From the NCBI GenBank assembly GCA_003344405.1, contig NOWV01000014.1, positions 62,001 to 126,000 of the forward strand: 64,000 nt of DNA, given 5' to 3'. The notes beneath the pieces are model-generated. The model was given only the letters and a program-made list of their open reading frames with translations, was not told the DNA's origin and searched no databases. Positions 1-59,947 of the stretch are shown here, in pieces. Source of the stretch: Trichoplax sp. H2. Taxonomy: Eukaryota. The first letter of the stretch is position 1. The number at the start of each line of letters is the position of its first letter. A program made the position numbers and the translations under genes.

Positions 1-344
1 GTAAGTAACGTCAGTTAATCTTGGTAGATTTGACTGAAAATTATCATAAGTAGATTTACACTGATGAAATCCTTTAATAATTCTACAATTTGCTGAAAAA
101 TTTAGAAAGGAATCATAGTTATGTATAGGACAATTTTCCATCTACAATCATGTAAGCGTATTAATGTGCATAGGTCTTATAATGAGAAAATTACCATAGT
201 AAAAGGGTAATGAATTGATAGGTAGCACAAGTCAAAATTAAATTACGAATACGAATGAACATACAGATTTTTTTACATGATAGCAGTGCCATAACTATTA
301 TCAATCTAATAGTAAGGAGATAGTTGATTGTACTAATTATTATC

Positions 345-350
345 TTTATT
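345..350 (-). promoter_or_regulatory. Candidate polyadenylation signal of the CITED-like gene
   Basis: TTTATT on + (AATAAA on -) about 83 nt past the stop codon; weak on its own in AT-rich DNA. Confidence 0.35.
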
Positions 351-432
351 TCTACGACGATAATACTAGATATTGAGTTGAAGAGTGTCAATATGAAAGA
401 TATAATTAAAATTGATATGTTTCTATCCTTAT

Positions 433-711
433 TTAACTTGGAGTGGTCGGATCAACCAGCTGTGAGTTAAGATCAATTTTTAAATCAGGTAATTCTTCTA
501 GCCTGTATAAGCCAAATTCGAAAATTAAATCGATTATAGTTTGATCATCGATGCTATCGGCTAGTAATTGAAAGTCTTCAAACCAACAACCATCTCGTTC
601 GTAAAATGATTGATGAAGATGGTGATGGAGCAATAGATGATTATTATTCCTGTTCATTGAGTTCTTTCCATGACAGCTTTCATCTTCATTGGTTACAGTA
701 AATTGAACCAT
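433..711 (-). CDS. CITED: CITED-family (CBP/p300-interacting transactivator, ED-rich tail)-like protein, 92 aa, single coding exon
   Basis: C-terminal ADSIDDQTIIDLIFEFGLYRLEELPDLKIDLN aligns by eye, ungapped, with the recalled vertebrate CITED2 CR2 domain [32 protein letters not shown], including the LPEL/LPDL motif. His-rich run upstream. In-frame TGA three codons before the ATG. AATAAA on the minus strand at 345-350. Confidence 0.8.
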   Translation of the reverse strand: MVQFTVTNEDESCHGKNSMNRNNNHLLLHHHLHQSFYERDGCWFEDFQLLADSIDDQTIIDLIFEFGLYRLEELPDLKIDLNSQLVDPTTPS

Positions 712-3700
712 TTTCTCTCAAAGTTTGAAATATTGATATAATATTGAGGATAAAAAGTTTTCAATTTTTTGTGGTACACTTATTTGCTTTGTCAAGTAGG
801 AAACTTGAAAAGGTTTTATAACAACTTATTAATCAACTTTTAACCTATTTTTCGATCTTTTCCTTTCTCTTCTTGGCTTCACTAGCTTGCGATTTTGATA
901 TGTCAATATCGATGATGCTCAATAGGATCAATTCTTATCACCGAGTAGAAATAGAATGGATGGGAAATATTACCAAATATAATCTTGTAATAGTATCCTT
1001 AATATTTTTATGCCTATATATAAGGAAATTATCGAGAAACCAACTTATTAATAATATAATCTAGTAATCGATGGTAACACTGAGTAAATTTAAATTATTA
1101 TTTCAAGTAGAAGGAGTCAGCTGGACTGGAATATTAATATTTAGTCATTGTAGTTTAAGTCAAATCTAGTTCATTCCATTACTTATTGAGCTGGAGTGCA
1201 AGTGAAAATAATTTACACGGTCACGAGTTATTTATATTGTTTCCATGTGATAGAAATAAAGCAAGATTAAATAGAATAGACAAGCAAGACAGGATGTCTA
1301 TATTAATCAATATTATTTCAATAATTTGAACCAATGAGAATGAGTAATAACCTAAAGTCATTTTATTTAATGTCTTTATTGGGGAGTATTATTTTATTAC
1401 GCTTCTATGTGAAAAGAATAGCTTTAGGTGTCGATTTCGATCCTAGTCGATACGCAAATGGAAATAAATTGAGCACGAGGTTGGTAATAATATTAGGAAT
1501 CAATAAAGATTTCAATTAAATAGTCAGACAAGAATAAAATTTGATTCTGTTGTCTTGTCAAGCATTTTATAATCAAAAAAATACATAAGGATATCGGAAA
1601 GGAAGGAATGGAAAGGAAAATAGTACCGTAGTTAAAAGAGTGAAAAATCATCTTTTAGCTCTTTCTTCCTCCTTTCTTGGTATAAATTTTGTCAAAATAT
1701 ATTGTTATATTTAGCTCGTAATCCTTGGTAACAATTATACCTACGTTAGGCATGCATTGATTAACATTATCTTACCCATGGCCGTAGCCTATTTTTACTT
1801 CTTTTTGCTTAATTACTTGATCATCGTCTATAACAACATGGCGCTCTAACTATGTAATTTATTCTATTAAATCCTATTATTGACTAGCTTTATTCAAATA
1901 GATTACAGTTGAAATTCTTCATCATCAACAATAGAATAGTATGACTGCTCTACACCCCCTGCTTGGAATAAAAGGATAATATCAATCATAGAAGGTAACC
2001 ATTTATTAATTGTTTGACTAAAATGATGATTTATCAAAGGGAATTATAAATATAGCGGCGTCGAATTGAATGCACTAAACTCAAAATGAAGGTGTAAATA
2101 AAATTTCCCAAATTTAGATATGGATCATATCCTACATATCCCTAAAAAATTGACGTATACTCGTAGTGCAGAGAGCGAGAGAGAAAATCTATTGACATCC
2201 ATACTGCGATCATAATGATAGCAGATTATATTTTGAAATCATCGAAAATGTCAAAATAAATGATTACAATATTACATCCGTATAATGAGCATCTTTTTAT
2301 CTCGTTATTCTATTCAGTTATAATTTCCAATCTTAGTAATAGTTATAGAAAATCAAGTATTAAAGTAAGGTAATCATAGAAACTATATTATCTGCTAGTA
2401 AATTTAATGCATTTATCTTCGCTTAAGGGAGTTGAGCTTCAAAATTTAGAAATATTTTCAATTTTGATCAGAATGGATAGAGATGAAGAAGAAAAAAGTA
2501 GAAAATAATATTCTATAGCGCAATTGATAAGGAAATTGCTGATTATGTTGGAAAGATATTGAACTATAATGATGACATTGAAATGCTTAATGGAATGGAA
2601 TAAATACTTGGCACCATCTTTTATTATTAACTTGCATTTTATATTTGATAGCACGTTTTGGACTAATCTATCGAGTAAATAATATATTATTCTTGTCAAC
2701 AGCAGTCTATATTATATATTGTATAACGATATAGTTCATTTGATAGGAATAGATGGGATGGACATAACTTTAGTATCCATAACGATATTTTTTATAATAT
2801 ATGCCTTAATAAACTGTTTAATTAGTAGATGAAATAACGTTGATAAAATGAGATGCAATCTTTGATGCAGATCTTACATGGAAAATAAAATTATACTGCT
2901 GCCTACTTAAGGTCCAATTATATATGCAAAGACATATAAGCTATAATTATTTTAATTGCAATATTATAACGACGAGGTCATGATTTATTAAGATATGAAT
3001 TTTTTATACCATCATAATGAATAGATATGAATGTCAAGGATGAATAGACATCTCAATTCATTTTCACTAGTTATTTGTAGAATTTAAAGAATAACATTAT
3101 AAGAAATAAAATATAACCAAGTTATGCTGCAAAATGATGACGTAAATCAACTTAGGAAAATAGAAAAGAAGGCGACATAGGAGGTTAATTAAAGCATCTC
3201 GTCAGCTAATAAAATCAACTTGGTCAATTAGGTTAATAATGCCTCAACTCGATGATAATGTTGAAGGAAGAAAGCCCAATGACTAGAAATATTTAAGATA
3301 TCAAAGTGTGATGATTAAAAAAACTACGCATAGATTAATCTTTGACTGTGACTGTATATATATTTAAAGTATGTACTTGTGGTAATTGAAGCTATCATTT
3401 CTCTGTTGCTATGGCTAAGCAAATAGTTTTGATCAATATAGCTATTATTATTTAAAATAGAGGACTATATCTTTCTATGTTTATATATTCCTGAAGTACT
3501 GCATTACTAAAATCGTCATTATAATCAAGAAACGATTATAATTATCGTTACCTTAGCCTATTCTTACGACTATTGTCATGACGATAGCTAAGAGGGTAAT
3601 TTATGCCCCCAGACGAAAAAGATAATTTCAACGGCATTTAAAACAAGAGAAGCTATGATGACAATTGGATATAGCTAGAATGAATTAGAATCATGAACAA

Positions 3701-6694
3701 TAGTAAATAAAATACAAATAAATACTGTTAAACATGTCAATATCAAAAGTTAAATTAAGCTTTCCGAGACGTTGAGATTGCATGTTAACCTTATTGCTGT
3801 ACTTTATATTTTATCGAGTCTAATAGAAATCAGTCGGTCATTAATTTAATACCCATTCCTCTCTCATCTATATCTTACAATTTTATTCAGTCTTTTCATC
3901 ATCAATGATGGAGAAATAAATTAGTTAATAATGAAAAGAATAAATCATTCCCATAAACGTTCAAGCTAGTTTCCCATCTTTTAGTAACGCTATGATTTCC
4001 ATGTCACATTCAATAAAATGACGATATTACTTATGTGCAATGAATACAAATCGCTTACTCTGGCTATCATTTTCTATCATTTAACCATAGCAAAAGTTAA
4101 ATTGATAAGGCAAATAATATAAACATAAATTAAAAGTAATAGACAATAGCCAATGATTGATCACTAATTCTAATGCTATCATCTAAATCTAATATATTGA
4201 TATCCACAAAGAGTCCAAAGACAGCTTCTATCAATTATAGGATAACATTATCTTATTCGCCTTTTTCTTACTGGCAGAAGGATATACCATATATTCATAA
4301 TACATTTTCATGTGCTCATATTTTATACTCATTCTTTTTGGAAGATAGGAAATCCCCAAAAAAACTTCTTATAGAACGCACCTTGCTACGCCGTCATTTA
4401 TTTCTCATTGTAGTTTGATTGTTAGTATGGTGATTATCTTTCAACGTTAAGTTTGGAAATAAATCCATGATACATTCATATTTTAATCATAGCTGAGTGA
4501 AATGGATAATTTATTCTTGGTTAAGGCAAATAGATTTACTATTTTACTTCTACTTTAGCTTATCATTAAGTACGATTCCTATTGCCAATAATAATTTGTA
4601 TAGTTACGACGTTACAAATACAGATGATGGTTACAAATATTACATCATGATCTAAATGAACATTCCTCAACCTAGCTGCAGTTTATACAGTGTCGATTTG
4701 GATCAGTATAGTAGAATGGAAATCAATAATAAAGTACATAGATGAGTCTGAAACCTGCTTCATTAACAATTTAAAAACTATCATTTATTTTTGATGCCAT
4801 CTAGACCTTGATAGCAAAAAATTCAATTATCTGCCATGTTACCCTTTGACTTCGTATATAAAGTAAAGGAAATTGATACCGAACCAATTTTTCTGCTTAT
4901 ATCTGAATCAGGATAGCTAATACAGATGCTATTAACACATCTTGACCTATGAATTATTAGATTAAAGAATTGCTATATGATTCATTCTATACATAATTTG
5001 CTTCCCTATTCTTATCGTAATGGTGGCAAATTTTTCTGGCGCTCAGATATCGAATTATGTACTGCAGTATAGGAAACTATCCTAAAGAAGTTGCTAGCAC
5101 TATCTTTAAGTTACATTAACTTTAGCTGTGACTTAAAAATTGGTGTAAGTGAATTAATGATGTTTAAGATCTACTCCGCAACTCATATTAAATATCAAAT
5201 ATTTAGCAGTACAATCCAGATGCAATGATTGGTAATGGCTAAAATTAGAACAGTGATTCATACGAGCGAGAAACAAGTAATAGACCAATCTTAAGTTCTT
5301 TGTTTAGACTTTGTCAGTTAGTTGGATTAGTATTTACGCAGGATAGAGAAATGCACATACCCCCAAAAATCATAAAATATAAGTATTTATGACCTGCTTC
5401 ATGATTCAAGTTAAACATCTATTTATCTATATTCAATTTCAGTCGCCTTGCTAATCCCTATTGGTACTATATAGCGTACTATTTACTGCATCTATAGTAA
5501 AAGAGATTGTTTTAAATATGCCTATTTATCGCTGTGGTAGATTACGTCAGTTTTAAAATCCTCTGTCTTGATATTGAACTACATCTAAACTACAGATCAT
5601 GCAGATCTACTTTATGATTCATTTTCAGTGGCAATCATTTTACTAGCTTTCTAGAAAAGGTTAGTAGAGTCTAATGATAAGAATACAATATCAACGTATA
5701 CCGCTAAGGAGATACTTAATAGTTAAAGTAAAGTTCTTTCTTTCGATTGTACTTTAAGTTGGAGTAGATATTAGCTATGGCGAATTAGAGTATAATCAAT
5801 TAAGTTACTAGGCATATCATAGATGATTTCCTAATGCTGCTTACTTAGAGGCATGCGATACTTGTTAGATGCGATTAATGAACATTTCTCAATATGACTG
5901 TAGTAAGTTGTAGTATAGAGAATGATACACGTCTAATCCTTATGTCAATGTTAAATCAAGATATCTTTGGAACGATAAAGGTAAATCTTCTCGATCAAGT
6001 TTATTCACTAATTTCAACTGAAAGAATATATGATCTATTGAATAATGACATCATTGCAATTTTCAAGTAAATCGATTATTTTCTAATCTAACTGAATATG
6101 AATATCATTTGCCATTATCTTACTAGTTATGAATATTTACCCGATAGTAATTATAATAATCCGTTGAAATTCTCTCAAGTTGAATTTTTTTAGCTGGATG
6201 ACCAAGGACAGTAATCTGGATGACTACCGGTTGTGTCAATGATTTGATCCTTGACTGAAGATATTATATATATATCAACTAGAATTCTATCCTTCGATCT
6301 CATAGCGGTGTGATAAACGTCATCAAGGTTGTCCTCGACAACAATAACAACAATGCATTCATTCTTTTCATCTTTCAATCAACAATCAAATGTATTTGTT
6401 GGTATATGTATCATCAATGTGTAGATTGATTAATGCCTGACTCTTTGTCACCTATGGTATACAATTAGATTGATGGTTAGAATAAGAACGCGATGCTGTG
6501 GTGATGGATTGGATCACAAATTACTGATTGGATATTCTTTTAGCTATCGAAATAAGGCGGGAGATCCCCGACTGTGATAATTATCTCAACAAATTAAACT
6601 ATGCGTCTATTTCATACAATTGATCATGATAATGCATCCAAATGATTACGTTAATAATCTACTATTATGATCATGGTTAGTACTAAGATGAATG

Positions 6695-6940
6695 TTGGAC
6701 TACTACTCTCCCCATGTAGCCAACTGTAGATTAGAAATTAAGATGGATAAGATTAGTAGAAACACTTATGCCAATGAGCGACATTGGATTAAAATAGATG
6801 CAATCGATAGAATCATAGCTATAACGAGAACGAATATTGGATTACTCTCCTCATGCAGCCAACTATAGGTTAGAAATCAAGATGGATAAAATTGATCGAC
6901 ATATCGACGAGTAATAATGGATCGAAATTAATGCAATCGA
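6695..6940. repeat. Diverged two-copy tandem duplication, period ~140 bp
   Basis: tactctccccatgtagccaactgtagattagaaattaagatggataa versus tactctcctcatgcagccaactataggttagaaatcaagatggataa; both copies end near atgcaatcga. Confidence 0.85.
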
Positions 6941-7616
6941 ATTTGCAATAAGAATAACTGCAGACTGTAGAGTAGCACAGCTATGAGCAATTCTGAAATA
7001 AGAAAGTAGAATTTGAAGAATATTACTTTAGTAGAATCTAATCATTTATGAAAATATAGAAATGATTATTGGTAGTAGAAGCGAAAGCCAATAGCGATTT
7101 GAGATAGGATATGCGTAATAGAATTCTTATAATTAAAATTATGATCTAATATCATGATCAATAAATTACTGTAAACTAAGGAAATAGTCAGGGGTCGTTG
7201 TTATAGAAAGATCAGCTATAGGGATTAAATAGGTCGTATAGCAGTAGAGACATCAACTATTTTTGTTCCAATTTCGTAGTAGGTGAATTAATTATTAGAG
7301 GTTACATGAGCAGTTAAAGGTGAAATTGCCACCTTTAGCAACTTATAATATAACATCATTCTTTCTCTTCTATACCAAGCTACCAGGAAGACTTACGGGT
7401 TACGGCATTTATTATGATAAAATCGCTTCTAATTATTATCAAACAATATTAACCACTTAAAGGTAATGCTTATGATGCTTTCTATTGAATGTATTTTGGA
7501 TTCTAGCTACCTTTACTATCCAGAAATTACGGCATATATCTATCGTTGGGCCATTGAAACTTATCACGAAAACGTTAATATCATTATTTCATAGCCCGCT
7601 AGACTTAACAACTACA

Positions 7617-7652
7617 ATGATGATGATGATGATGATGATGATAATGATGATG
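7617..7652 (+). repeat. (ATG)n microsatellite, ~12 units with one interruption
   Basis: atgatgatgatgatgatgatgatgataatgatgatg read directly. Confidence 0.95.
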
Positions 7653-8860
7653 ACATTTTGCAAAAGAATAATACATCATATTGATTTTCTGTTTTCTTCT
7701 CTTTGATGATACTTTCGGCATTCTCGCCTGGAACATAGGATTTAGCTCTTCTTTTCATTAACCGCTATATTCAATTAATTATTGTTTCTCAATGAATAAA
7801 AACCCAATCCATGACAATTGGTTTTAATTCTTTACGTGCCCACTATTCTTACAATCTCCCGTTGGTTCTAATAATCATCCATCTTCAATTCTTTCCTTGT
7901 TGACTTTGATACTGTTATTTCTTATATCAATAGTGATAACGGGAAGCTTCTATATTTATTTTTGAGAGATAGATCAAAAGCTGCCCAATGTCGAAATTAT
8001 TGTTTCAGAAATTATATTAAAATGATTTTCCATATAAAGATGTAAACCAATTTGATTTTTATTTCATCGTATTACTCATCCGTAAAAACTGCATTGCTCT
8101 TACTGATTTTCAAATAATATAAAAAAGCCAAATGAATTTTTTTGCTTTACACAGTATCTTATGCTTATTATTATGATTGCAATATAATTCTGTTTTAATC
8201 AAGATACGCATAATTCTATACTAATGTTAAAATTTTAATATGTAAATTACTGATGATTATAGCGGGACTATAATTACCATAAATTAAGATCTAAAACTAA
8301 ATAACTAGTAATATTTATGGAGCACCGAATTTCGGTTTACTGAAGCTCTTCGATAAACCTATAATTACTTCAATGTCATTTTTATAAAAAGAATAAAATT
8401 TTCTTCCATTGCAACTGTTTGTACATAAAATGCCGCAAATCGGAACTACGGTACGATAATGCACTGCTATAGCATCATTTCTATCTGGACAACATTTTTC
8501 ATGAAATATGCGAAACTTGAGATTAATCCATCTGTCATGCTATTATTTCCATATGAAAGTCATATTCTGTTACGTATTTAAGAACTAATATGCGGAAAGA
8601 GAATCCATGGCATGATTTTCAACTAGGGACAATGAGAAATTAGAGAAATAAAGCAAGGGCTACATATTATTGAGATGAATAAATGCATATGTGCAATGCA
8701 TTGTAAAATATATTGATTAGATATAGCCCCAAGCAAGTATGCTAATCAATTAGGAATGACAACACGACGATTTGATATGTTCGCTACGTATATATAACAA
8801 GATAAATGGTTTTATAATAAAATATGGATCTTTCGATGGGATTCCGTAAATGCGTATACG

Positions 8861-9143
8861 AAATATGGAAAGTAGCAAAGTGGCTTAGTTAACCTCTTAT
8901 TGTTATACCTTAACGGTAAGGAATGCACGTAGTACATGTTGTAGCTTCTGTATATTTTATCATTTTATCACCAAGAATTTACCAGCATATCCATTTATCG
9001 AGATATGGAAAGTAGCAAGGAAAACTCAGTTAACGTCATACTATTATTATTATGCCTTAACAGTACGGTAAGGAATAGTGCATGTTGTGGCTTTTGTATA
9101 CTTTGTGATTAACCATCATGAATTTACTAGCATATCCATTTAT
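8861..9143. repeat. Diverged two-copy tandem duplication, period ~140 bp
   Basis: Both copies start atatggaaagtagcaa (8863, 9003) and end gaatttac[c/t]agcatatccatttat. Confidence 0.9.
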
Positions 9144-12103
9144 TATTTTCTAGTGCAAAAAAAGCAATCGCTGCAAAAATGACATCATCATTTGTATGAT
9201 TTTTTATCCAAAAGTAAGCGATTACCTAGCAATCTATATATTCAAATGCAAAGTAAGTAGCAATAATTTTATAATTTAAGAATACGTATATGGTATGTCA
9301 TCAAGCTAACTCATTATAGTCATTTTTGTTGGATATAAATGCAAAGTCAATAGGCAGCTATGATGTCATCGTTGATTTATGATTTTGTCTAGTCGGTAAA
9401 GTTCAACCATAATCTATCAAAGTTACAGCCAACTTTACCTAATGTGTGCAGATAGAGAATAATTATATTAGTTTGAGCTTCATGATTCCATTCATTTGCT
9501 TTTGACACATCGATATTTGTTCATTCTAAAATAAAGGATAAATAGCCAATACAATGATGTAGAAGCTGCAATAATTGTAAAATGCTTTCAGGAAGTCATC
9601 AGCTACGCTCGTATCCAACATTGAATATCTTTTACTCTATCAAAATTATGGCTGCAGGTATGAAATCAAGCGATCCATAGCGATCCGCTAAGTGATGGGA
9701 TTTTATTGACCCCGGGCAAAAAAATTGAGATTTAAATTATCGATCATCAAGATCTAATCAAGAAGTAAAACTATGATTAAAGTAGACTTTGTTTTTTTAC
9801 ATTACACCTGAAAAGGATGGCAAACTTCAAATGATTATTTTCTACTCTATTGATGATTGAATTGTAACAATAGGAAATGATCCAAGTCAATATTAAATTT
9901 TGATTAGTTTGTCTATTCAAGTTATGTCGATGGGCATTATTGTTATTGAGGGTGTTGAGGAGGTGTATTCTTTTGAAATAGGCATTATTCCATCACATGT
10001 ACAAATTGTTATTCTTCCTCAGGGAAAATGAGGTTGTCATTATCATCAAGCTGTAGGATCACAATCAACAAACAATACAATATCAACATCATCCTATATC
10101 ATGCAATATCGACATTGTTGCTTACTCTCTACTCAATCCATTCAAATCAAGAGATTCGATTTAGTCAGCTAAAATAGACGTTCAACTTTCAACAGGATAA
10201 TGTTATCCTGTTATTTTTGTAGTTATTTCTTAGTGATTTTCGAATTAAATCATGATCCATCATCGATCGTTGGAAATTGGTAGACTGTATTATTACACGA
10301 AAATAATTTCCATTTTCTATTTTACTCATTCTCTCTATCATTCCCCCTTTCGTCTATTCTCCTTTAAAACAATGTTGCACTCTTAATGATAACTTTAAAT
10401 ATTAAGAAATAGATTAAAAATGGCTAGCGGAAATGATGACATCAATCTAATACAATAATATTCGTCATCCACTACTCATGATCGCAAAACAATTCTTTCC
10501 TGTCGCCTTTTCCTCTTGATCTATATATATATAATTTTGTATATAATTCTGAAATATTTTAATTCCTGATCTTACATATTGAAATAGGATCATTAGATAA
10601 CGTGATAAAACAGAATTGATCAAAATATATTAGAATTATTATTTGAATTACTGATCTAGACTTTTCCCTATGTGCAAAAATCGATAACTTCAATTCAGAA
10701 TATGTATGATTTTAGCATTTTTTATTATATTAGGTAACTTGGACATTGCAAAAGCAATTAATGTAATTTTCTTGCTATCTAAGGTCTGATAGAACTTGAT
10801 CCATTTGCCAATCAACAAAATAATATAGGATAAGTATCATTTACTATCCTTCCTTATCGGGCAACTTGAACATTGCAAAACAAACTAAATACACCATATC
10901 AGGTTTCCTCTCTTCCTGCAGATCATTGTTATCGACCTTTAGAAATAAGCAGGGTCATTCTAACTTAACTTACTACTATGAACAAGCTTCACGAGTTTAT
11001 GGGGCAATAATTATTTAGAATCAATTTTATGGGGAAACTATCTTCAATATGTCAAGAAACTACGTCTATTCCCCAATCTCTGAACAATTTTAATTTTTAA
11101 CTGTATTCTAATTCATGACACACATTCCGTTAAGTAACTGTATAAAATTGAAGAAATAGTAGGAAAATAATACGATGATGTTTTAATTTTTCAGTCATGT
11201 TAAAATGGATCGGCAGTTTTATACACTGAACCTGAACGTAAAAGACATTTCTATTAAGAGGACAGTTCGTATAATCAGTACTAAATTTTTTATCTGTCAT
11301 TTCAGAGTGTGCGACTGAAATGGCGAAAAATTGCTGTCAAAGTATTATTATTCCGATGTATAATTAGGACTTTAACAGCAACTATGATTAAGTCCCATAT
11401 CCCTTCAGGATGGCAACTTACAGTTCATTAACACTTATAGTCCATATCAGTTTCTATCATGGCTTCTGGATGTGTTTTAAAGACTTTCCCTCTCTGTCAA
11501 GCCTATTAAGTCCCTCTATATTAGAGGAAGATATTAAATAGAGCATTGGTAGAAATTTAATTTTTACTAATATTTCTATAATATCGTGATGACAATTGCT
11601 GTTATGTGCTATTGTCATTTTAGAAGCGAGATAGGAATTTGAAATCAGCATTTCATTCTTAAAAATTTACAAATAGGCAATAGAATTGATTGATGATGTA
11701 AAACAGAAAGAGATTAAAAATTTTGATCATTCTCTTCACTGGTAGCCGTCATTTTTAAAGTGAACCATTTTTCCAGGATACAACTAGAAAACTATATCAA
11801 TTAATTTTTCCCTTTCTATCAAATTGAATCTCCTCTCTAGCTAAGTAGCAATTGGTGCAAATATTAAGTTAGTCTCTCCAAATATTATTCAAACTTATTG
11901 TATAGAGACGATTGTTATCATTTAATAATTTACCCTAGCAATCGATAATACAACTACACGTAGACGGAAATAGAAATCCTTTACTTCCAATCAATCATGA
12001 CAGTCATGGCTTTGAGCCAAGAAATAACCTATAACCGTATTAATTTAAATAATATCTTATCCAATCCAAGATGACGATTACTATTTTTAGGCAATAATCT
12101 CAA

Positions 12104-12497
12104 GATAGAATCGTATTTAAAACTTCAATTCTTGATTATTACTATCCGATTCTGAAAATAATCACTTCTGCCAATTGGTAAATGTGTTTGAATAAATTAT
12201 ATATGTGCATATTAAACCGCATTTCGATTCATGGTTCCAAAATAGTCAATATCGCAGAAAAATATGGATCAAATTTTTTGTATTACCTTCAATCATCATG
12301 TCATTCTTAAGATAAAATCGTATGAAAAAACTTCAATTCTTGGTTGTTATACTACTAGATCCTGAAAATAATCACTTCTACCAATCGATAAGTATGTTTG
12401 AGTAATTATTTTAAACCGCATTCGATCCATGTTACTAAAATTGTCAATGTCACTGAGAGATGTCGATCATTTTTCTGTATTACCTTCCATCATCATA
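12104..12497. repeat. Diverged two-copy tandem duplication, period ~207 bp
   Basis: Shared blocks aacttcaattcttg, ctgaaaataatcacttct, ttaaaccgcatt and tgtattaccttc occur in the same order twice. Confidence 0.9.
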
Positions 12498-13641
12498 TAC
12501 ATTGTTTGTAATTGAATCATACTGTAGGGAAGAAAGTTAAAAGAAATTCAAACTATATTACTTCATCCATTGCATGTTGATGATGATTCTTATCGGAGTC
12601 ATTCTTAATGAATTGAATAAGATAGAATGTTGAAAAATCTTTTTTTTTATCCCAGTCATCATAAGCATTATTCTAAGTGAGTCAATTAATCGATAAAGAA
12701 CAATATAGGTAGGAAATAATTTAAACTGGCTTAAGTGTCGATATTGGTTGAAACTGTAGATGGATAAGAACTAAACTAGCCGAGATTGATCATTGGTGAT
12801 CCGATGAATAATTATTCTAATCCGTTGGTGTTCCGTGTTGTTATTTCCTTTAAAATGGAACAACGTAGTATTTAAAATGATTTTGAATTGAAAATAATGT
12901 CCTCTATACAATAATTCAATACAAAATTAGCATACAAAGTAAAGAAAGGCAGCTATCGATGACCTAGATAAAAGAAGTCAAACAACCAAGCCAATTATAT
13001 TGTCGATTCAATTATAGCTCGAATATTATATCATTTCCTCTTTTTTTGCAAATTAAAAATGGTTTATCATCTTGAACCTAACTCTAATTTAATATCGATG
13101 TTAGCCTATTTCTTATTGTTCAACTTAGGCAAATCTATCATTTTAGAAAGCCAATTCTAACTGAAAATATATCATCAAGCAGAGTTAAATGATTATCTTG
13201 TGTAATAAGAGATTAATGAATATAATAAGAACCTAGAGATTATAGGACTACGATTTTTAATTTAAGCTCGGATAATAACTTGGAAAGCTATTGACTCTCT
13301 TTGACTACAATTTTAAACGTAATTAATTATCTTTAACGAACGGCTGATTATTTTATTCGTTCAAATCCTATCGATAGCTTTGAAATTTCGGATAAAAAGT
13401 ATGTTTGAACAACTCTGTTGACAATATTAGGTCAGCGCTATGATGGTCCGTCAATTATGTTGATTTATTAAACAGTTTAAATAATAACATTTTACTCCTT
13501 ATCCACCCTTAGGATTAGAATTAATTTTGATGAGCTATAGGTCAAAGGGTCAACGTGACCGTCATGGCATCATCAAATTAATTTAAAGTATACGTTAGGG
13601 TACGATAAAGTCAGGATGTGCAATGAAGACTAAAAATCAAT

Positions 13642-14060
13642 ATTCCGTCTATCCAATTGATGGCTTTTCGATCATTCTTCCCTTCCAAACACTACCTTGA
13701 CCAATAGGTACTGCTAATTTCAGGAATTAAACTTATAAAATGATTATCTCAAACCAATCTGTTACTTTAATTTCATGCTCACTTTGAGAATATAACTAAT
13801 ACCTCGCTAAGTCATTCTTGTCGAACGTAAAAGATGATCCAAGTCAAAGAATGTAAATCAACATTCCATCCATCTAATTGATGCCATTCAGATCATTCTT
13901 CCCTTCCAAACACTACCTTGACCAATAAGTACTGTCAATTTCTAGAACTAGACTTATGAAACGATCATCTTAAACCAGTCTGTTAACTTTAATTTAATGC
14001 CCACTTCAAAAATACATATACAACTTCGATAAATTCTTCTTTTGGAAAGTAGGAGATGAT
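13642..14060. repeat. Diverged two-copy tandem duplication, period ~221 bp
   Basis: gatcattcttcccttccaaacactaccttgaccaata is identical at 13670 and 13891, with collinear diverged flanks. Confidence 0.92.
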
Positions 14061-17000
14061 TGGTGATATAGGAATAAACCTAGTTATTTCAGGACAGCCT
14101 AATTTATCCAAGCTAGTTCACTTTGAATTTAGCCAATTTTAATTCTTCTATTTAATACTATCAAACATTTGCTACACTATATTGGCTGTAGGCTATTAAA
14201 ATATCGTCAATGGCATTATTATTATTGCTACCTATCAAGAAACTAGTGCTGGAGCGCTGGAAAGATACATCTAAATGACAGCGAGTTGTAGCAGTTTAAA
14301 TACTAATTACATTATGCTCATGCTAGTTGACGATGATATAATACTCAAGAATTATTTGTTGCACTTTGGTAACAATATAGTTATTCTCACTGTCAAAGAA
14401 TCATTATGTGATAGAGTAGTTGCGAAAGCTAAATAGCAGTTAGAATAAATGCTAAAAACTTATTGAAGGTTGAAATAAAGACAATAAAGAACAAGTATAA
14501 AAAATTTGTCTGATGAATAAAACCATCATCAATTAATATATAATCAATATTTTAAAGATTAAAACAAGATCACAACTGATACTTTCATCATCAACTAGAA
14601 AGAATGATTGAATAATACATATTGAATCATTTTCAATGAAATAAGATGGCTATAGTTAGAGTATTTACATTTATTAAGGTAAAAGAGCAAAATTAGTCTG
14701 ATCTAATACTGTCGCAAATAAGAGAATAACTTATGATTGCGATATTTAATGGTCAATTTTATGTCAATATCTTCAAAATGATATATTCGACAAAGCAATA
14801 AAATGATCAAAGTCAAGATTTTAACAATCAGAATAAATTAGATGAAAACTTGTAACGAGAACATCATTAGGGTATAAGCTGAAAATAAATCTTTAAAACT
14901 ATATCAAATTTTTATCAGGTCTTGACATTATTGAAACTGTAAAAGAATATTAAATGTTGATGGGTAAAAATTTTAATGGAATGATGGGATTAGCTTGTTT
15001 TAAAAATAAGAAGTTTTAATTTTTAATCTATTGGATAAGACTGTTAGAATGTTTAATATTATGTAGGTATATCAGTCAAGAACTCATAAGAGAAATTGGC
15101 TATAATTACTGAAACTCTTGTAATAATCCAATGATAAGAATTATTTTACTTCCACTATTCTATTATCCTAAGAGATGCAATTTTAGAAATGATTCTTGTT
15201 CATTTTACATCAGTCCGTGTAAACCTCGTCATAGTATATTTATCAGAAAATTAATTTTAACATCTAGACATACAGTAGATTGGCAATATAAGGAAGAAAA
15301 TTGAAGTTTTAGCAGCTGATTTCAAACCCCAATTCTTGGTGAAATTCGAATGTGTTTTAAAGTCAATAATTACAAATTACAGATGAAAGGTTAGCAATAA
15401 CTTACGATATCTCTGCAGAGTATTCCAATAACCAAGAAGATTTATTAGAATAGATTTGAATTGTCTGGTAAGAGAGAGCTTGATGGAAAGATTGACCAAT
15501 TAAACTAAATTGTGAAATCAATTTCGCAAGGATTCATCAATGCAACATGGAAAGGGAGAATCATTTTCCATTTACATACTATCTTATCCTAATCAATTAG
15601 AAATGATGATGAAAAAGTAGAGTAACTTACGATTGATCCAGGGGTTATTCAACTGAATAATCGATAGGAGGTAGGATATTTCAATCCGTTAAGATAGCTA
15701 AGAGAAGCGAGAAATAGAAAATAATCTGCAATGCAAAGGTGTTGCTACTGTCAACTGAATTTATTTGTATCGACAATAAGTCGTGGTTCCAAGTGTCTAA
15801 TAAAATTGTCGTTGTCGAATAAAGATTGCATCTATTGGACATGCATTATGTCAATAGATCAAAGTAATAAAGGATAATTGTTATTTATATTATTGTTAGT
15901 ATTCTTTGATTTACTTGTTATTTATTATCTTCTATGTTGATATCAACCTCTAATGTATATTTTGTGACTTTAGAAAGAGGTTAAAGGGGGTGGAGAAAGG
16001 TAACTCCTTATTCAACTTTTTTACTCACTTACTTTACACACTCTCATTCTACTTGTCTTTTGTACTATACTTATTTATATTCAGGTCTTTTTGATTGAAA
16101 TAATAATAGCATCTATTATTAACATCGATTCAATACAACAAATTATTTCAAATCAACATGATAACGAGCAGAAAAAAGACCAAGGAGGAGGGAGGTAAAA
16201 TGTCTTGCTTGTTTGTTGTTCTAGTCAACGAGAATCGTAAGTATAGAAATAGATGACAAGTAATTATCTATTCTATTTTATTATTTTGTTATTTCTAATT
16301 TCCTGCTAATGTATTCTTCATCTTGATCAGTTGTCAAATTCTAAATACAATAATAGCATTGAATTGTAACTGTACTAATGGAGAGAAATCTACTCTAAAA
16401 TACGTACTAAATATAGCCCAAATCAATGAAAAGAACCGGCATAGTCCAAAACAACAATATTTGCTTCCTGATCACGATCAGAACTTCTCTCATAAGGTTG
16501 AAAATTAGCCTTAAATTGCTTAAATTATCTTAGAATGAAATGTGGATATTAAAAATAAAGACGCATAAATTAATACAGAAGGAAAATAAAAAAACCAAGA
16601 CAGGATCCCTGTGATACCACGTCTAAGCAGTATCGGACGCGAACTCCAAAGAGCATCTTGCCATAGAAATTTATTTTCTGATTTCGATAACCTTGCTTAT
16701 AACTTGTCACCACCTCTTTTAACACCCCTCTTAGCCCCCCTTCTGCTTTAAATCCATAAATAAAATATTCCAGTTTTGAATAATTGTCATCGTCGACTCT
16801 ATATTAAACAATTTTTGTCAATTCTCTATAACACGTTAATCTATTTCTTTTCTTTCTCATTTAAGTTCCGTGGGCAGATATTTTGTATTAGTCAAATTTG
16901 GTCTATTATCACTATTTATACCGTCCTATTACTCTGGGCTAAATAATGCTGTAGTACCGGTATAGCATGATGGATTTAATAATTGTAAAATCGAATAAGT

Positions 17001-49192: not shown

Positions 49193-52080
49193 ATGGATTA
49201 TACAGCAAATAGAATGCGAGAGCTGTACAAGGAAACAATTGCCGTGCCAGTTTTATCGCCAACTTATCAATCCAACCAGATATTCACACCGCTACAATCA
49301 CCGCAAAGAGAAACTGTATCTGAATCACAGTATGAGATTGCCCAATCACACTCTTTCTGCTATTGAAACACTACTTTATTGATATTTATCTTCATGTGAA
49401 ATTTTAACAAAATTGGCTATTAGCACTCATCAAGATATGCAAGTATTAAATTATAGAATATTCAAAAGTATTTATGTTTTTAATTAGATATCGAACTTAC
49501 TACGAGAAATGGGGACGAGCGACTAAAACCCCGTGGGGAAGACATCACAGCTACGCTGGAATTGGACCGTTATTTCTACCACCAGGACATAGACCAAAGG
49601 AAGAGCCACCAACTAGAGTAGAAAAGGGTCATAAGCATTATGGTAGCGGAATTATACCTTTCCCAACGTAAAATCAAACTTTCATAACAATTCTATTTAC
49701 CATAGCCTTTACTAGGATTCAGAAAAATTTATGTTGTTTCTAATGATTTACGATAGCACACCTGTTCAGCAGAATTACTGTCGCACAGGATCTCAACTAA
49801 GTCGCTTAAGGAAAACAGATGAACTGTAAGAAATGATTGCTGATTCGAAAACTTTACAAAATATTGTTGATAATTCTGTCCTAATTTTGCTATTTTCTTT
49901 CTTTTCATATTGGCTTTTGTAGAGTTCCTAAACCGCTGACAGCAGACTTAGTGTAAGCAATCGACTGCCATAATTTTCTTCTAACATATATCCTCATAAA
50001 TGTATCCTTTACTCATCAGTTTTACCGACATTACTGTAATTGATACTTCCGAAATTAAAAATTTTTTCCTAGTCTATAAATAATTAAACATTTTTATTAG
50101 TAATATTCAGGTTAAGCACCCCTTACCCCGAGAACATCCATATGCTTCGCATATTTCCAAACTATCAATATTTCCTTCTCCGGTTTCTCCTGATGAGGCC
50201 AATGGACGCTTAGCTGTAGCATCGACACCTTATGGTGGACCCCCTCCGGTACCCTCAACCATTGCTACCCAACCATCAGAGCAAATCATACGTGGTAAAA
50301 CTAAAGGATCACCTTGGCGACACGAAATAGTGCAAAATGGAGAGCATCCACTTCATAGAAAAGCATTAACTTGGCATGGAGAAAGTGTTTATCAAGTAAG
50401 ATTAGACTGCTTAGCAAAGCTAAATTGCTAATTATTTAATAATATCTTCAATATTTCATCATTTACTTTTGCACTTGGTAGATTTATAGTGGCCCAAATA
50501 CACCTGTCCGTCAGCAAATTTACCCTGCACCACCCAAGTCTATTGCACCTAATCCTCGACCTCGAGATGGTAATCTAGCAATCTCTCCTCGAACTGCTGA
50601 TACTCTTATTGATGTTCGCAAATCGCTTATGACTACGACGTATCAAAGCAAATATAGTAGTCACGTACCAAATGTTTTAAAAATTCATCGGAAGGGTGAT
50701 GTGACAACAGAGGTAATTAAAGAGTAGATGATCCATTTCTAAAGACTCTATTACAATCTTGTAATGTAACTAGTATTGTAGACTGTTAGCCATGTTTAAT
50801 ATAATGTACGGTAGATATTTATCCTAAGAGATATTTGGCAGCTACAACTATAGACTGTAGTGGTATAGACTATATGCTAGAGTACAGATGACTATATACA
50901 GTAAGCTGTTGAGTTACTAATAAGCTTATAGGTAAAAATAGAACTGTAAATCATATATTAGGATATGGTTAATTCATTGTACTTTGGCTGGTGTGAATAA
51001 TGTCTACGTAAGTACTACAGTCGTATCCATATTGGATTAATGGTGGTCCGCAGTAGAATAGTGTTACTAAGAATAATTTAACTATGTGTAAAATAAGGTA
51101 AAAGGTTGCCATGCGGATTGTAGTTGCGAACGCTACGGAAAGTATAAAAGTATGCAACTTTAGATTATTCTGTTAGTTCGTTCTAGAAGTCTTTCGTAGT
51201 AGTATTCGGCTAGAGTAGAGCTATGTGTAGTTAATCTTTGTATAAGATTCAATAAAGCCCTTATTTTTCTAAAGTTTTGGAATTTCGTGATCGGTATATA
51301 TCACTAACCTACCTGATATATTTATCGTAATATACTAGTAATATTAAAGGCTATCTCACTTATTAAGGCAAAATAGGAAATAAATCATACTTAAGAAAGT
51401 AATTTTATCATTTTAATACACTTATTATTGCGTATATGACTATATAGACTGCAAATCGAATGAAGAAGAACCGAGGCCAACTTTTCATAGGAAATTTCTA
51501 TTCTGAAGTTTACGTGTCAGATAATGAAGATGAGGATGCTAATAAGACTGGTAATCTAGAATAGCTTATTCATTGTTATATAAATAGACAGGAATTAAAT
51601 AAATTGAAGAAACCTTCTATACGATGTTTAATATTTTGTGGTATTGACAATAATGTTATAGATGATGATATGTCGCAAGCAGCGTCTCCAGTGTCGACCG
51701 GTAATAAGAACAGCTCCATTTGCAAAGATCAAGGTAATAGCAGAGAAGTCAAGTTCGAAAATGATGATGATAATAGTGATGAATATAAACGATCTCCAAG
51801 GGTAGTAAAAATCTCAGATAAGGTAACCATAGTCAATGAAGATAACTCCAGCAAAACAGCGATTATAAACAGTAGTAATACAGTACAAAAGTCCCCGGAT
51901 ATCTCATCTCATTTACGAGAAAGGCCAACCGCTGATGATTCAAGGCCTGGCTTCAGTAAGTCTGATATGCACAGAAGATTTAATCAGACTTATTCTGAAA
52001 TATCGCCTGATTTGCGTGAAAATTCAAGATCTGGTAAACGGCAAATTATACATGGCTGTCCAACATACTATTTTCATTGA
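49193..52080 (+). CDS. SPMIP4: C7orf31/SPMIP4-like (DUF4555) ciliary/sperm microtubule protein, 8 exons, ~487 aa
   Basis: Exons 49193-49329, 49488-49667, 49757-49825, 49923-49952, 50101-50395, 50482-50712, 51448-51550 and 51662-52080 join via GT-AG introns into one 1464-nt frame. Motifs PWG..Y.GIGP..LP..HRPK.EPP...KGHKHYG, EHPY.SHI, KALTW.G..VY, YP.PPK..APN and terminal DLREN..SG....HG...YYFH match recalled human C7orf31. Confidence 0.85.
50750..51345. mobile_element. Old dispersed repeat, copy 2, inside intron 6 of the SPMIP4-like gene
   Basis: Collinear with 23610-24600 in the same orientation; accounts for most of this unusually long (735 bp) intron. Confidence 0.75.
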
Positions 52081-54602: not shown

Positions 54603-56978
54603 TTAAAATTTTAATTTCTTTTTCTTTTTCGCTGCCACTTTCTCCGCATTTTTAGCCAGCTTCTGTTCTAGTTCTAGACGCCTTTTTAGTTCTGCATTTT
54701 CCTCCTATTTCGATAAAAGCAGAAAATATTTATAGTTGCGATTTCATTGCATTAGCGTACAATCATAAATAAAATAAATACTTCCTACCTTTTGAGGTGT
54801 AACTTGTGGAGATATAGTCGCTTTCTGCTTTTTTATAGGGGATTTCTTTTCGGGCGAGATACTTTCATTTGGCATTAAAGAGGGTGGTAACTTATTAAGC
54901 CATGAGCCAGCTCCGCCAGTGACTGCGGCAGACTCTCTTTGGGTGCCCGACATATCATATAAGCTATTTTCAAAAGCTTGATCTTTAAGAGAAAAACATT
55001 AACTTAATTGCTGCAACTTTATATAATAAGGACAAATATAAAATTACTTACCAAAATTGTAACTATCTCTGACTTGAAGCCATGTCTTTTTAATCATTAA
55101 TTGTTTGTACAGCTCCGATACTTTGGTAGCTACAAATTTTGATGTACCAGTTCGAATTTGGTCTTCAAAATCCTGCAATAATAAATTTACAAGTTGAAAT
55201 ATTATCGCTGTGTAATAAGGCTACATCATGTTTTGGTCGAATGTAACATTTACTGTAAGCATTCTAGAGAATACTGTCAACGGAATAAAGACTTGTAAAG
55301 TCAATAAAAGTCAATGGGAATACCTTTGATGTTATCATTTCATTCGTAAAAGATTTCTCGTCGAATTTAGAAGTTTCTAATTGTTCTATACAGACGAAAG
55401 ATGACAACTCAAGTTTACTTTACTTCGTCTAAATTTGTTTGTTTTTTTGGCCATGTTATAAGATATAGGCGTAACAGGAAAATAAATTAGTATTGGTTTA
55501 TACATTATTACTTCTTGAGCATCTTGCCCCAGTACTTTTGTAATCGTCGATCTCTCTATCCTTATTTACGATGATTTTTTTCAGCTCTTCCTGTCTTCTC
55601 AGCAACTCACTAATCATCATCCATAATGGTTGTATCAAATGCAAATCTAACTATACATTAAGAGAATCAAAACAAGAGGATTATTTAATAATTACAATTG
55701 GATCTTTAGTCATACATGCACGATTCATAATACTAGGCAGTTGCAAAAGTTATACATTTAATTGTTGTTCAGTTTAATATTAATCAGATACCTCTTGGAG
55801 ATGAGCAAGCTCGCAATGGAATGTCCAGTTAAATGGAAGCCCAGCTAGGAGAGTGCTAAAACTGAACATAACCATTTGATCGCCTTCCTGATATAAGGTG
55901 TGCGTCATATCCTCATTAATAGTTTACACTCTATACAATATTCACATATATATTCTTATTGCTTATTTCAGAATGTAGTGAATGCTAGTAAAAATATTAA
56001 CCTGATTATCTTGAAATTCCAAACTGTAATTTATGTCAGGCTTTTGAATTTCAATCGACTTGCTAATATGTTTCAGGATTTGATGTAATGGAGCTTCAAC
56101 ATTGGGATTAAGTACCTATAAGTCAAAAGTAGAAAATTACATCGAATTTTATTGCACTAAAAATAAACATAGCAAAGCAATGCGGGCTTTGTTATATGTA
56201 AAAGTAAATACGTTATGTGAATTTAAATAAGAGTCAACTGTCTATGGGTTCGTTGGTACTAAGATCAACATCCAAGCAGTATTTGGATTCTTCAGCACCG
56301 TAGACTAATTACAAGTATTTCGATTTATACCATAACGGCCATTTGCATTAAAGGCAACGTTACGTGGTTAATAACCGCTATAACATTTCTATATTTACGT
56401 GATGCTACTTTCGTTTGTAACAACATTCAATGTAATCATGCAAGTTTAAACACTACTGCTATGATGAATATGTTGGTGATAGCAAAGGTACAATACATGT
56501 GGTTGCACATTTCAATTTTCTTCAAGCCAGTATATTATTATACAGTATGTCTGTTATAATTTACATTGCACCCAATGCAATCAACAGTCGTTGTAAGAGC
56601 GTTCAATTTAAGCTGCTTGGCATTTGTAAGGACAATTCGTCATGTAAACCACGAATATCAGACAAATCAAGATGACATGTATAGGAAATGGTGCATTGCT
56701 TATTTTAAGAAATGTCCATAGCTATAATGTAGTGGATGTTTTGTGTGCTAGTCTAATTAATAAATACCATTAGATACCTTGCATCGTTTCCTAATATCCA
56801 TTTGATCTAATCTCTCTGACCACAATCCATAATTAGGATCGTATAAACAAACTTCGTAATCTTCTTCAGAAAAATACGACTTGATTAAGTAAACTTTAGA
56901 GTTAATCTCAAATGGATGCCAACTTTGAGAATTGAGATCCCCTTGTCGATTTCGTCTCCATTCCATTTCAGCAGCCAT
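54603..56978 (-). CDS. NHEJ1: Non-homologous end-joining factor 1 (XLF/Cernunnos), 8 exons, ~342 aa
   Basis: Exons 56978-56778, 56115-56002, 55887-55792, 55650-55512, 55385-55324, 55172-55052, 54982-54789 and 54704-54603 splice in frame (1029 nt). XLF motifs LAGLPFNWTFHC, HLIQPL, KDREIDDYKSTGA and LETSKFDEKSF are present, plus a basic/hydrophobic C-terminus KKKKKLKF. Confidence 0.93.
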
Positions 56979-57339
56979 GATGCTATGATGATAAAGCACT
57001 TGATAGATAGCAAATGATTTGGGCTAAAGTCAAAATTGAATTCGAGAAAGTGTCGTAACGTTAGTGATCAATGTGGAACAAGAATTTGATCAAGATTGTG
57101 GCATGCAAGAAAGTAATGTAAACTGGGTCCAATTTGTACTACTGTACACTGTACACTGTACACCGTCGGTATCTCCTTTAATTATTATTCTACGCGTACG
57201 TTTACAGTAATGTATTAGCTGGAGAGGGAATAAATATTACTTCTGATTCAAGATACGATGGGTGAATTCGTTAATCTGCAGTCATAAATCACCCCATCAG
57301 CTAATTCTACGTTGCAGAGAGTAGAAAGTCAAATCGTCG

Positions 57340-57365: not shown

Positions 57366-58307
57366 TCCAGTGGTTGGTTGCCTAGACTACAAAACTGCTG
57401 AGACGGAAAGCGAGTTGAGTCGTGGCCTTCTACAGTACAATATACTATACCCTACAAGTTGGTATTGGTTCGGTACGTACTGTAGACTGTAGAGGTTTAA
57501 ATCTTCCTCTTAGTATTATCCCAGTGTACTGTTCGATACATGAGTCCAGCTATTGTGCATGTTATGCTGTGTTGAATGAGCTTGCGCAGTTACGTTCATT
57601 AACCAAGATGGAGGAGCAGCTCCGGGCATAGACAATTCGTTACAGGTGCATCTAGTAGTCCATTGCTCGGAATGCAAGAGTACAGCAGTGATTGCATGAC
57701 TATCATAGCAATCTATGTATTGACAGATTTCTGCTAAGGAATATCATCAATAATTAACTAATCACTGACGAACGTGCCGGGCAAATTCGTTCAGTATCAT
57801 ACAGTAGACTCATGGACTACTAGAAGAAGACTTTCTAGTAGACCGACCATGAATGGACTACAGTATACACCACCGTCAGGCTCAGTGAAGCATGCTGTTG
57901 TCTCTACTCAACGCCAAAGTTTCATACAACCAAACAATTTGTAGTCTTGACAGTCTGTATTCAATAAATGGACTACCAATAGCATGAAAGCGTTAGCAAA
58001 AGTATAGAATCTAAACAACTAGCGATGATATAATTACTAGTAATTCAACAATGCTTACGATGTCTTCATAGTAGAAGTGCTACCTAAAGCTACACTAATA
58101 AACTTCTACTAACTGACAGTACTGTTTGCGATAGGGGCAGTCGGGTACGACCAGGTATTCTATCCCATGGCGGTAAGGGTATCCATGCCTAATTGCCCAT
58201 GCCTGGTAAACCGGCGGTACAGCTGTCATCTGCGCATACCCAATGTGCTCGAGACGAGATTATTGCTAGTTTTGTTCAAATTAACAAATTGGAGAAAGTT
58301 TACAAGA

Positions 58308-59947
58308 ATGGACCCACTATTAGTATTTGTCTATGGAACTCTAAAAACAGATGAACCTAATCATTATTTACTAGAAGATCCAAAGACTGGTAAAGCAAAG
58401 TTGATCGCTAAAGGTCTGACTGCTGCTCCTTATCCATTAATTGTACACTCTTGCTACAGTATTCCCGTTATGTTGGATGAGCCTGGTCGCGGCCACGTAA
58501 GTCAAGCAAGCCGTACACTATTTGTACTGGATATTGATGCAAATGCTCTCTTTTCATGTACAATAATGCATCTTGATGTAGTAGTATACTGATGCATACG
58601 AGCATCTATGCATGAAATCATTAACATACTGTTCAATGTCTACTCGATGCAATCAATTTCGTCTTTAATACTGGTTGAACTACAATAAGTACTGTACTTT
58701 ACATGGTATACAGTATACTGTACATACAATACACTGGACACTGAACAGTTCTGTCTCTGCAGGCGATATCAAAACTCGATGAAATGATTAAGAACTAGAA
58801 TACTGCCATCAAAGTTGTAGACTCATATATAGTTCGCTCATTAATATACGCGTATAGCTTAATATACAACAGAGCCTACAGTCTAGCTTATTCTCTAGAA
58901 ATTCCAGGCCAAATTATGCTCGAATTGAGGGACTCCAGTTTAAGCAGTCGTTGCTATTCGTACCATTGTATGCATGACTAATTTACTATCCAAGTAGCAG
59001 TATCACAGTAAAATGCGTAATTAGGTGTAGTGCTACTTATTGATTTGTATTCCAAGTCCTTTGCTTGCTACTCGAATTATATTAAATTAATTCAACTAAC
59101 TATAACTACGGATATCAGTATGCTAATTTAAAATATCCAGTTTTACACTCTACATCCCTAGGAAATAGCACTGAACGAGTCGTTTGTGCATGGCAGTGAA
59201 AGTGTAAATAACAACGTCGATTACCATTCTGTTATCCACCTACTAAGCCAACATACTCGTATATCTTGCTTAATACACAGTCCGCTAATGTTATTGATTT
59301 AAACTTGTGCATGGACATATGAACAAACTCATCAATGTTTACAGTTCTAACACAGCGATACATTAGTTTATACAGTTTGAAAATTATACCTAATTTCAGT
59401 CAAGGATCATACTGTATTAAAGTGTAACTATAATACCGTATTAACATACGTATAGACTTTTATATGCTGCGATTTGTCACTTAGACTTTATACTAAAATG
59501 CTTGATATTTTAATTTTTCACGAACTGTACTTAAGTGTACTATAATCCCGTATTAATATACGTAAAGACTTTTACAAATATCATTGATATTCTAATTTTT
59601 CAATTTACTTATAGATGATAGAAGGCGAGGTATACAGAATCGATAATGATATGTTACGAGTTCTGGATCAATTGGAAGGTCATCCTGAATTTTATACGCG
59701 AACCATGATTGATATTACATTAACGGAATTAGCTTACTGCGATACAGAATTGCCATACAGCCTTAATGATAAAATCCAGTGTCAGGCCTACATTGTCAAG
59801 AACTATCGAAAAGATCTTATCAATAACGAACTCTTCACCTGCTATACAACTTACCATCCCAATATCAGTCCATACATCCTACACACTGAAAGGCAGGCAG
59901 AACTGTCTTATGATGAGCTTGTAAAGTCTGTTCATCAAGACGACTAA
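58308..59947 (+). CDS. GGACT: Gamma-glutamylamine cyclotransferase (GGCT/AIG2-like fold), 2 exons, ~173 aa
   Basis: Exon 1 58308-58496 (LVFVYGTLKTDEPNHYLL...YPLIV) ends at gtaagt. Exon 2 59615-59947 follows a tag acceptor and has IEGEVY...LDQLEGHPEFYTR with the catalytic Glu. Phase-0 intron. Confidence 0.88.
59411..59574. repeat. Diverged two-copy duplication in the GGACT intron, period ~114 bp
   Basis: actgtattaaagtgtaactataataccgtattaacatacgtatagactttta versus actgtacttaagtgtactataatcccgtattaatatacgtaaagactttta. Confidence 0.85.

Follow-up and report, generated by a model that had tools for sequence, protein, structure and literature searches.

A small, expressed and conserved gene whose acidic product may carry a divergent minimal CITED-type TAZ1-binding domain

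The switch in which CITED2 and HIF-1alpha contend for the TAZ1 domain serves as a textbook example of how disordered proteins compete. CITED2 has been assigned a narrow range: the available text of a 2025 preprint (bioRxiv 10.1101/2025.06.06.658374) confines it to vertebrates and the lancelet, and a table in an earlier study (PMC1868935, 2007) files it under the genes of Chordata origin. We asked whether a short open reading frame in a 64,000-nucleotide stretch of genomic DNA (hereafter, the window), likened to the CR2 domain of CITED proteins in a preliminary description made from the letters alone, is a gene, and whether its product could belong with that family. The frame is a real, well-expressed and conserved gene rather than a chance frame. 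Its product is a largely disordered acidic protein of 92 residues, and sequence comparison suggests that the core of this protein, at approximately residues 43-87, may be a divergent minimal CITED CR2-type TAZ1-binding domain, a reading to which we assign a probability of about 0.5.

The frame runs from ATG to stop on the minus strand of the window (433-711) in the list of open reading frames, and an in-frame stop 3 codons 5' of the ATG means that it cannot extend upstream within its exon. Position, start codon, length and residues are as first transcribed, the stretch quoted in the preliminary description being residues 52-77. The His/Asn-rich leader announced there was also borne out, with 12 His or Asn among the 37 residues of the leader (residues 1-37). 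The following 55 residues (38-92) hold 14 Asp/Glu vs three Lys/Arg and form a Glu/Asp-rich C-terminal domain. Searching the window with the gene's protein and its two orthologues (tblastn) recovered no second copy, the best other match having E=2.1. The parts of the coding sequence, with the observations that define them, are as follows.

433..711, minus strand: CITED-like coding sequence, 92 codons plus stop (open reading frame, upstream in-frame stop, 5 of 5 variants synonymous)
688..711, minus strand: residues 1-8, MVQFTVTN (8 of 8 columns invariant in three orthologues)
601..687, minus strand: residues 9-37, His/Asn-rich leader, predicted disordered (3 of 29 columns invariant; 8-residue gap in the orthologues; pLDDT below 50 at residues 6-38)
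583..600, minus strand: residues 38-43, where the acidic C-terminal part begins, leading into WFEDFQ at 43-48 (E38, R39 and W43 invariant)
472..561, minus strand: residues 51-80, the CITED-matched stretch with the alphaA and LP(E/D)L counterparts (Pfam and PDB matches; 20 of 30 columns invariant; AlphaFold helix at 56-65)
481..492, minus strand: LPDL motif, residues 74-77 (gap-free against the LPEL of CITED2; LPEL in both orthologues)
436..471, minus strand: residues 81-92, C-terminal tail with L-N-x-Q-L-[VI]-D (6 of 12 columns invariant; preceded by the invariant D80)

The 1400 bases that surround the frame were present in 20 of the 24 listed public sequencing runs, drawn from 8 studies, and four of the 24 (X17, X6, X5 and X18) were aligned to window positions 1-5000. 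In X17 and X6, whose library type was guessed as 'RNA?', contigs with a word depth of 327.4 and 171.6 span window positions 1-1013 and 1-1003, respectively, and past base 1170 the depth in these two runs was at most 13.5 in every bin. A loose end at 1013, found in both, continues with 29 letters that match 15406-15434 exactly and no other site. A second loose end in X6, at 1014 and carried by 2 reads, continues with 20 letters identical to 6142-6161. The two stretches skipped in this way have canonical intron ends on the minus strand (GTAAGT...AG and GTAAAT...AG), from which it follows that the X17 and X6 contigs are spliced RNA of the frame's own strand. RNA coverage, proposed as a check in the preliminary description, thus revealed a spliced transcript at depths of 327 and 172. 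The gene has its whole coding sequence in one exon, with a choice of non-coding first exons upstream of it. Its description as 'intronless' is accordingly right for the uninterrupted coding part but not for the 5' UTR, which is spliced across 14,392 or 5,127 bases. The two runs recorded as RNA, X5 and X18, showed no depth step, with 15-23 over the gene, about as in the flanks, and may hold DNA; their contigs stop at 990 and 1003, neither with a joint, and these two runs offer no more than a faint hint. Outside the coding sequence, the transcript has these parts.

712..1013, minus strand: 5' UTR part within the coding exon, 302 nt, without ATG, start context GAGAAAATGG
1..432, minus strand: 3' UTR (the transcript extends 198-288 letters past the first base of the window)
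1014..15405, minus strand: 5' UTR intron a, 14,392 nt, GTAAGT...AG (loose end in X17 and X6; splice sites)
1014..6140, minus strand: alternative 5' UTR intron b, 5,127 nt, GTAAAT...AG (loose end in X6, 2 reads; splice sites)
15406..15434, minus strand: upstream non-coding exon 1a, 3' end only (loose-end match)
6141..6161, minus strand: alternative upstream exon 1b, 3' end only (loose-end match)

Relatives of the protein are few and closely matched in layout. A HMMER (phmmer) search of 1.84 billion representative proteins returned a single match at E<=0.001, an 84-residue protein (P0001) that aligns end to end with the window protein at E=2.7e-21; the second member of its 90% cluster (P0002) also has 84 residues. 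The two share 57 and 64% identity with the window protein, respectively. Counting the columns that are invariant over the three sequences, conservation was complete in residues 1-8 (8/8), low in 9-37 (3/29), where the 8-residue length difference falls, highest thereafter in 43-69 (23/27), and intermediate in 51-80 (20/30) and 81-92 (6/12). D52, D55, I59, L62, I63, E65 and F66 are identical in all three. The motif at 74-77, given as LPEL in the preliminary description, is LPDL in the window protein; it is in P0001 and P0002 that the canonical LPEL occurs. Two blocks outside the CITED-matched stretch are also identical in the three orthologues, namely MVQFTVTN (688-711, minus strand) and the acidic-aromatic WFEDFQ (568-585, minus strand). 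The CITED comparison leaves both unexplained, and judging from their conservation they could form a second interaction site.

Further searches for relatives added none. A word-indexed homologue search with the window protein at near lengths gave no candidate; with profile A1, the same kind of search recovered only P0001 among 8 candidates at near lengths and, at longer lengths, none of 336 candidates at E<=1, and a scan of metagenome contigs with this profile gave 136 pattern matches, none of which was confirmed. That billions of proteins include just two relatives is what a sparsely sampled lineage would give. The exact window protein was absent from a collection of approximately 15 billion proteins, a look-up that a variant differing by one residue would escape. 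Public annotations seem, then, to have overlooked it, in keeping with the earlier suggestion that small frames of this kind are missed, and the gene offers a concrete case of a small single-coding-exon gene apparently absent from public protein sets.

Could the transcript nevertheless be a non-coding RNA, or the frame an accident inside a UTR? The length of the frame does not speak against this, and we dropped it as evidence of a gene: the window holds 11 stop-to-stop frames of at least 94 codons vs 5.0 on average in 30 shuffled versions, so that frames of such length arise by chance at the window's composition. The absence of the exact protein from the protein collection also points in this direction. 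Against it stand the sequence differences among the four aligned runs: all five variants within the frame lie at third positions and are synonymous, where only 19% of the possible single changes are. The 302-nt leader contains no ATG vs 6.0 expected from the ATG density of the window (Poisson P=0.0025), the start codon lies in a good context, with A at -3 and G at +4, and the orthologues are full-length proteins with an invariant start and conserved blocks. We therefore regard a non-coding origin of the signal as very improbable; transcription with splicing, the synonymous variants, the lack of an upstream ATG and the full-length orthologues establish the gene, and purifying selection on its protein is part of what these data demonstrate. 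In the same comparison, the runs differed at 2 of 734 UTR bases, at 5 of 93 third codon positions and at approximately 35 of the 4,000 bases that follow; these counts, small as they are, hint that the UTRs of the transcript are constrained as well.

We then compared the protein with known families and structures. In Pfam, CITED (PF04487) was the sole family reported for the window protein at E<=10, with E=0.003 and 18.1 bits, a value that overstates significance because the frame had been picked for its CITED look. The alignment places residues 51-80 on positions 160-189 of the 210 in the CITED profile. P0001 alone gave the same answer, with CITED again the sole family (E=0.0083, 16.7 bits, profile positions approximately 158-186). 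Neither the window protein nor P0001 reached the gathering score of the family (18.1 and 16.7 vs 27 bits). The Pfam scan proposed with the preliminary description thus named CITED and nothing else, but at a score below the curated cut-off.

A search against PDB chains pointed to the same family. Four chains matched at E<=10, and all are CITED2 or CITED2-HIF fusion chains: 1p4q_A at E=0.005 and 1r8u_A at 0.0096 (both CITED2), and the fusion chains at 0.02 and 0.46. With a two-sequence profile as query, the top three improved to 0.0031-0.0049, and the sole other match had E=1.2. The alignment with CITED2 covers 32 residues without gaps and has 13 identities, among which are both Asp residues before the helix, the G-L after it and the L-P-x-L at equal spacing. 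We checked the CITED2 numbering against D221, D224, 225-235 and W247 as given in the available text of PMC13286877, and obtained the following correspondence (window protein, then CITED2).

D52 and D55: D221 and D224
56-66: alphaA helix, 225-235
G67-L68: G-L after the helix
L74-P75-D76-L77: LPEL, 243-246
K78 (R in P0001, K in P0002): W247

An alphaA region of the CR2 type, preceded by counterparts of D221 and D224, is therefore present without gaps, and an LPEL-type motif follows it at the fixed spacing. The alignment found in the PDB search ends at residue 82 of the window protein. In the tail after LPDL, residues D80, L81, N82, Q84, L85 and D87 are conserved and the window protein has no aromatic residue; the L-N-x-Q-L-[VI]-D that follows the invariant D80 is a possible degenerate counterpart of phiC. 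The CITED likeness coincides with the best-conserved block of the protein (23 of 27 columns invariant in residues 43-69 vs 3 of 29 in 9-37). CR1 and CR3 gave no match, the profile being covered at positions 160-189 only. What was first called a CR2-like domain consequently holds for the part from alphaA to LPEL, where CITED and CITED2 are the sole resemblance, but CR1 and CR3 are missing and phiC is at best degenerate.

Structure prediction and broader searches were less specific. AlphaFold2, run on the three-sequence alignment, gave a low-confidence model (mean pLDDT 58.5), with 72-84 over residues 41-70, helices at 43-53, 56-65 and 71-85, and disorder over 1-38; a Foldseek search of PDB with this model, read at that confidence, returned 0 matches. 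The relation to CITED put forward at the outset did not surface in the large protein search: among the 1.84 billion representatives no CITED protein matched at E<=0.001, and the word-indexed searches likewise found none. To gauge how readily Pfam reports CITED in this DNA, 20 other frames of 76-171 aa served as a control set, chosen from the window's 63 stop-to-stop frames that reach 65 aa or more; CITED appeared in none of the 20, and their confident matches were to ordinary families.

One other lead was followed and set aside. Queried with the whole protein and with residues 38-92, the ESM Atlas returned bacterial ankyrin-like or unnamed clusters, the best at 0.85. An ankyrin repeat was rejected, as its scores of 0.83-0.85 and 74-89 shared features lie under the guide values of 0.9 and 170 and Pfam reported no Ank family at E<=10; we took these clusters as noise.

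How should a likeness of this size be read? One explanation is that it is due to chance: the small acidic product of the gene would be genuine but have some other function, for instance as a different protein-interaction adaptor or as a lineage-specific factor that evolves fast, and its resemblance to CR2 would mean nothing for function. Scores under the curated cut-off, a frame selected by eye for its CITED likeness, the lack of a significant CITED match among the 1.84 billion representatives, the empty Foldseek result and Atlas scores of at most 0.85 are all as this explanation would have them. It accounts less well for two differently built libraries, Pfam and PDB, giving CITED as their sole or top answer, for the absence of CITED from the 20 control frames, and for the position of the likeness, which falls exactly on the best-conserved block and on residues named as functional in CITED2 in the available text of PMC13286877. 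On balance, we consider a chance likeness rather unlikely.

Convergence is the other explanation, by which a lineage-specific small acidic regulator evolved its own amphipathic helix and LPxL and may bind TAZ1, with no descent from CITED. TAZ1 ligands are short linear motifs, and HIF-1alpha and CITED2 both carry LP(Q/E)L and occupy the same TAZ1 site according to the available text of PMC8784115. The match here extends over approximately 30 residues only, and CR1 and CR3 are absent. Moreover, the available texts of bioRxiv 10.1101/2025.06.06.658374 and PMC1868935 report no CITED between lancelet and placozoans, a large phylogenetic gap that favours convergence or chance. Several aspects of the match speak against this explanation, however. 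It runs collinearly and without gaps through 32 residues with the same spacing from helix to LPxL, it lies C-terminally in a Glu/Asp-rich tail as in CITED, its identities include the G-L, R and N, which do not look like contact residues, and the only PDB matches with E<1 are CITED2 or CITED2-HIF fusions aligned over their CITED2 part, with no stand-alone HIF among them. We think convergence rather unlikely, though it and chance likeness both count as serious rivals, and return to the reading in which residues 43-87 would be a divergent minimal CITED CR2-type domain.

Comparison with known TAZ1 ligands indicates what such a domain would share with them and what it would lack. With the CR2 of CITED2, seen together with the TAZ1/CH1 domain of CBP/p300 in 1p4q and 1r8u, the window protein has in common the gap-free 32-residue match with its 13 identities, the location of this match C-terminally in an Asp/Glu-rich tail, and a helix predicted at the position of alphaA, the rest being predicted disordered. 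It differs in having LPDL for LPEL, Lys (Arg in P0001) at the position of W247, and no recognisable aromatic phiC; it is also only 92 residues long, without CR1, CR3 or a Ser/Gly-rich region, and remains below the Pfam cut-off. In its available text, PMC13286877 describes CITED1 and CITED4 as small, fully disordered co-regulators that share with CITED2 only the conserved C-terminal domain, their CTADs being 45% identical to that of CITED2 and binding TAZ1 more weakly. The identity of the window protein to CITED2 (13 of 32) is of similar order, a comparison made with these paralogues by description only. Vertebrate CITED1 and CITED4 are approximately twice as long as the window protein and have kept CR1. 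The C-TAD of HIF-1alpha shares the LP(Q/E)L-type motif, but no stand-alone HIF chain matched, 7lvs_F and 7qgs_B doing so via their CITED2 part; in addition, the helix precedes LPxL in the window protein, as it does in CITED2, whereas in HIF it follows.

On this basis we propose how the protein would act if it is of the CITED type. Its C-terminal core would fold upon the TAZ1 zinc-finger domain of the organism's own CBP/p300, with residues 56-66 forming the alphaA helix and LPDL (74-77) occupying the LP(Q/E)L pocket, and the hydrophobic and acidic tail, L-N-x-Q-L-[VI]-D, might stand in for the aromatic phiC with weaker contacts. According to the available text of PMC8784115, the phiC of CITED2 combines aromatic or hydrophobic with acidic residues directly after LPEL and is needed for tight binding and efficient displacement of HIF, and a CITED2 peptide of alphaA and LPEL alone keeps this mode of TAZ1 binding at reduced strength and is a poor competitor of HIF. 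Since such a peptide behaves in this way, occupation of TAZ1 by the window protein would be expected to be of moderate affinity and reversible, and a CITED2-style one-way switch against a HIF C-TAD is unlikely. The lack of CR1 and CR3, together with a short and unconserved leader, suggests one of two roles: the protein may serve mainly as a competitor or 'plug' against other TAZ1 ligands or, alternatively, it may be a small adaptor that recruits CBP through the N-terminal octapeptide and WFEDFQ.

We infer that the DNA is placozoan. The statement in the preliminary description that placozoan HIF-alpha is reported to lack the C-TAD agrees with the available text of bioRxiv 10.1101/2025.06.06.658374, which states that placozoans have no HIF C-TAD and no FIH, and denies them CITED2 as well. 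Our own search for non-chordate CITED, confined to the literature, found none under Trichoplax or placozoa, Nematostella, cnidaria, coral, mollusc, sea urchin or invertebrates in general. Names of the 'CITED-like' kind may occur where certain invertebrate genomes have been annotated automatically.

A tentative scenario, against which we would put the odds, is that the last ancestor shared by placozoans and bilaterians already had the CITED-TAZ1 module, in the form of a minimal 'TAZ1 plug' (alphaA plus LPEL) of approximately 90 residues, engaged in HIF-independent competition at CBP/p300, and that the HIF switch, the aromatic phiC, CR1 and CR3 were added later, in chordates. Within that scenario, the ancestral job of CITED would be independent of HIF, because HIF-alpha lacks a C-TAD in such an animal. 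If true, it would date a TAZ1-binding module to early animal evolution, show a form of the module without phiC, CR1 and CR3, and bring the role of CITED before the HIF C-TAD within reach of a direct test that needs a single peptide and a single TAZ1 domain. It would also add a new minimal CITED-type TAZ1 ligand to a lineage described, in the available text of bioRxiv 10.1101/2025.06.06.658374, as lacking the family.

The remainder of the window provides the genomic setting of this gene. G+C content is approximately 30% throughout, which, with the GT-AG introns and the genes named below, would suit a small animal genome such as that of a placozoan, and scans with Rfam (at gathering thresholds) and for tRNA returned 0 and 0, with no rRNA. 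Among the control frames scanned, none in the first 48 kb had a Pfam match, and the right-hand 15 kb is gene-dense. Close to the CITED-like gene, a spliced contig of X17 on the plus strand joins 1477 to 1900 and 1992 to 2116 across GT..AG introns (exons 1340-1477, 1900-1992 and 2116 onward), which reveals that the 5' UTR intron contains a second, opposite-strand gene. An ATG frame at 1334-1519, with a hydrophobic, signal-peptide-like start, overlaps the first exon of that second gene. Towards the right-hand end, we found an exon encoding an XLF N-terminal domain (56757-57023, minus strand, E=3.3e-10), a two-exon GGACT/AIG2-like gamma-glutamyl cyclotransferase gene (58113-58592 and 59615-59947, plus strand, E=2.1e-05 and 4.5e-09) and a weak match to an oxidoreductase NAD-binding domain (60859-61167, minus strand, E=0.0091). 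An exon at 50084-50431 on the plus strand matches the Pfam family of SPMIP4-like proteins (sperm-associated microtubule inner protein 4) with E=1e-33, which suggests that the DNA is from a eukaryote with cilia or flagella, probably an animal.
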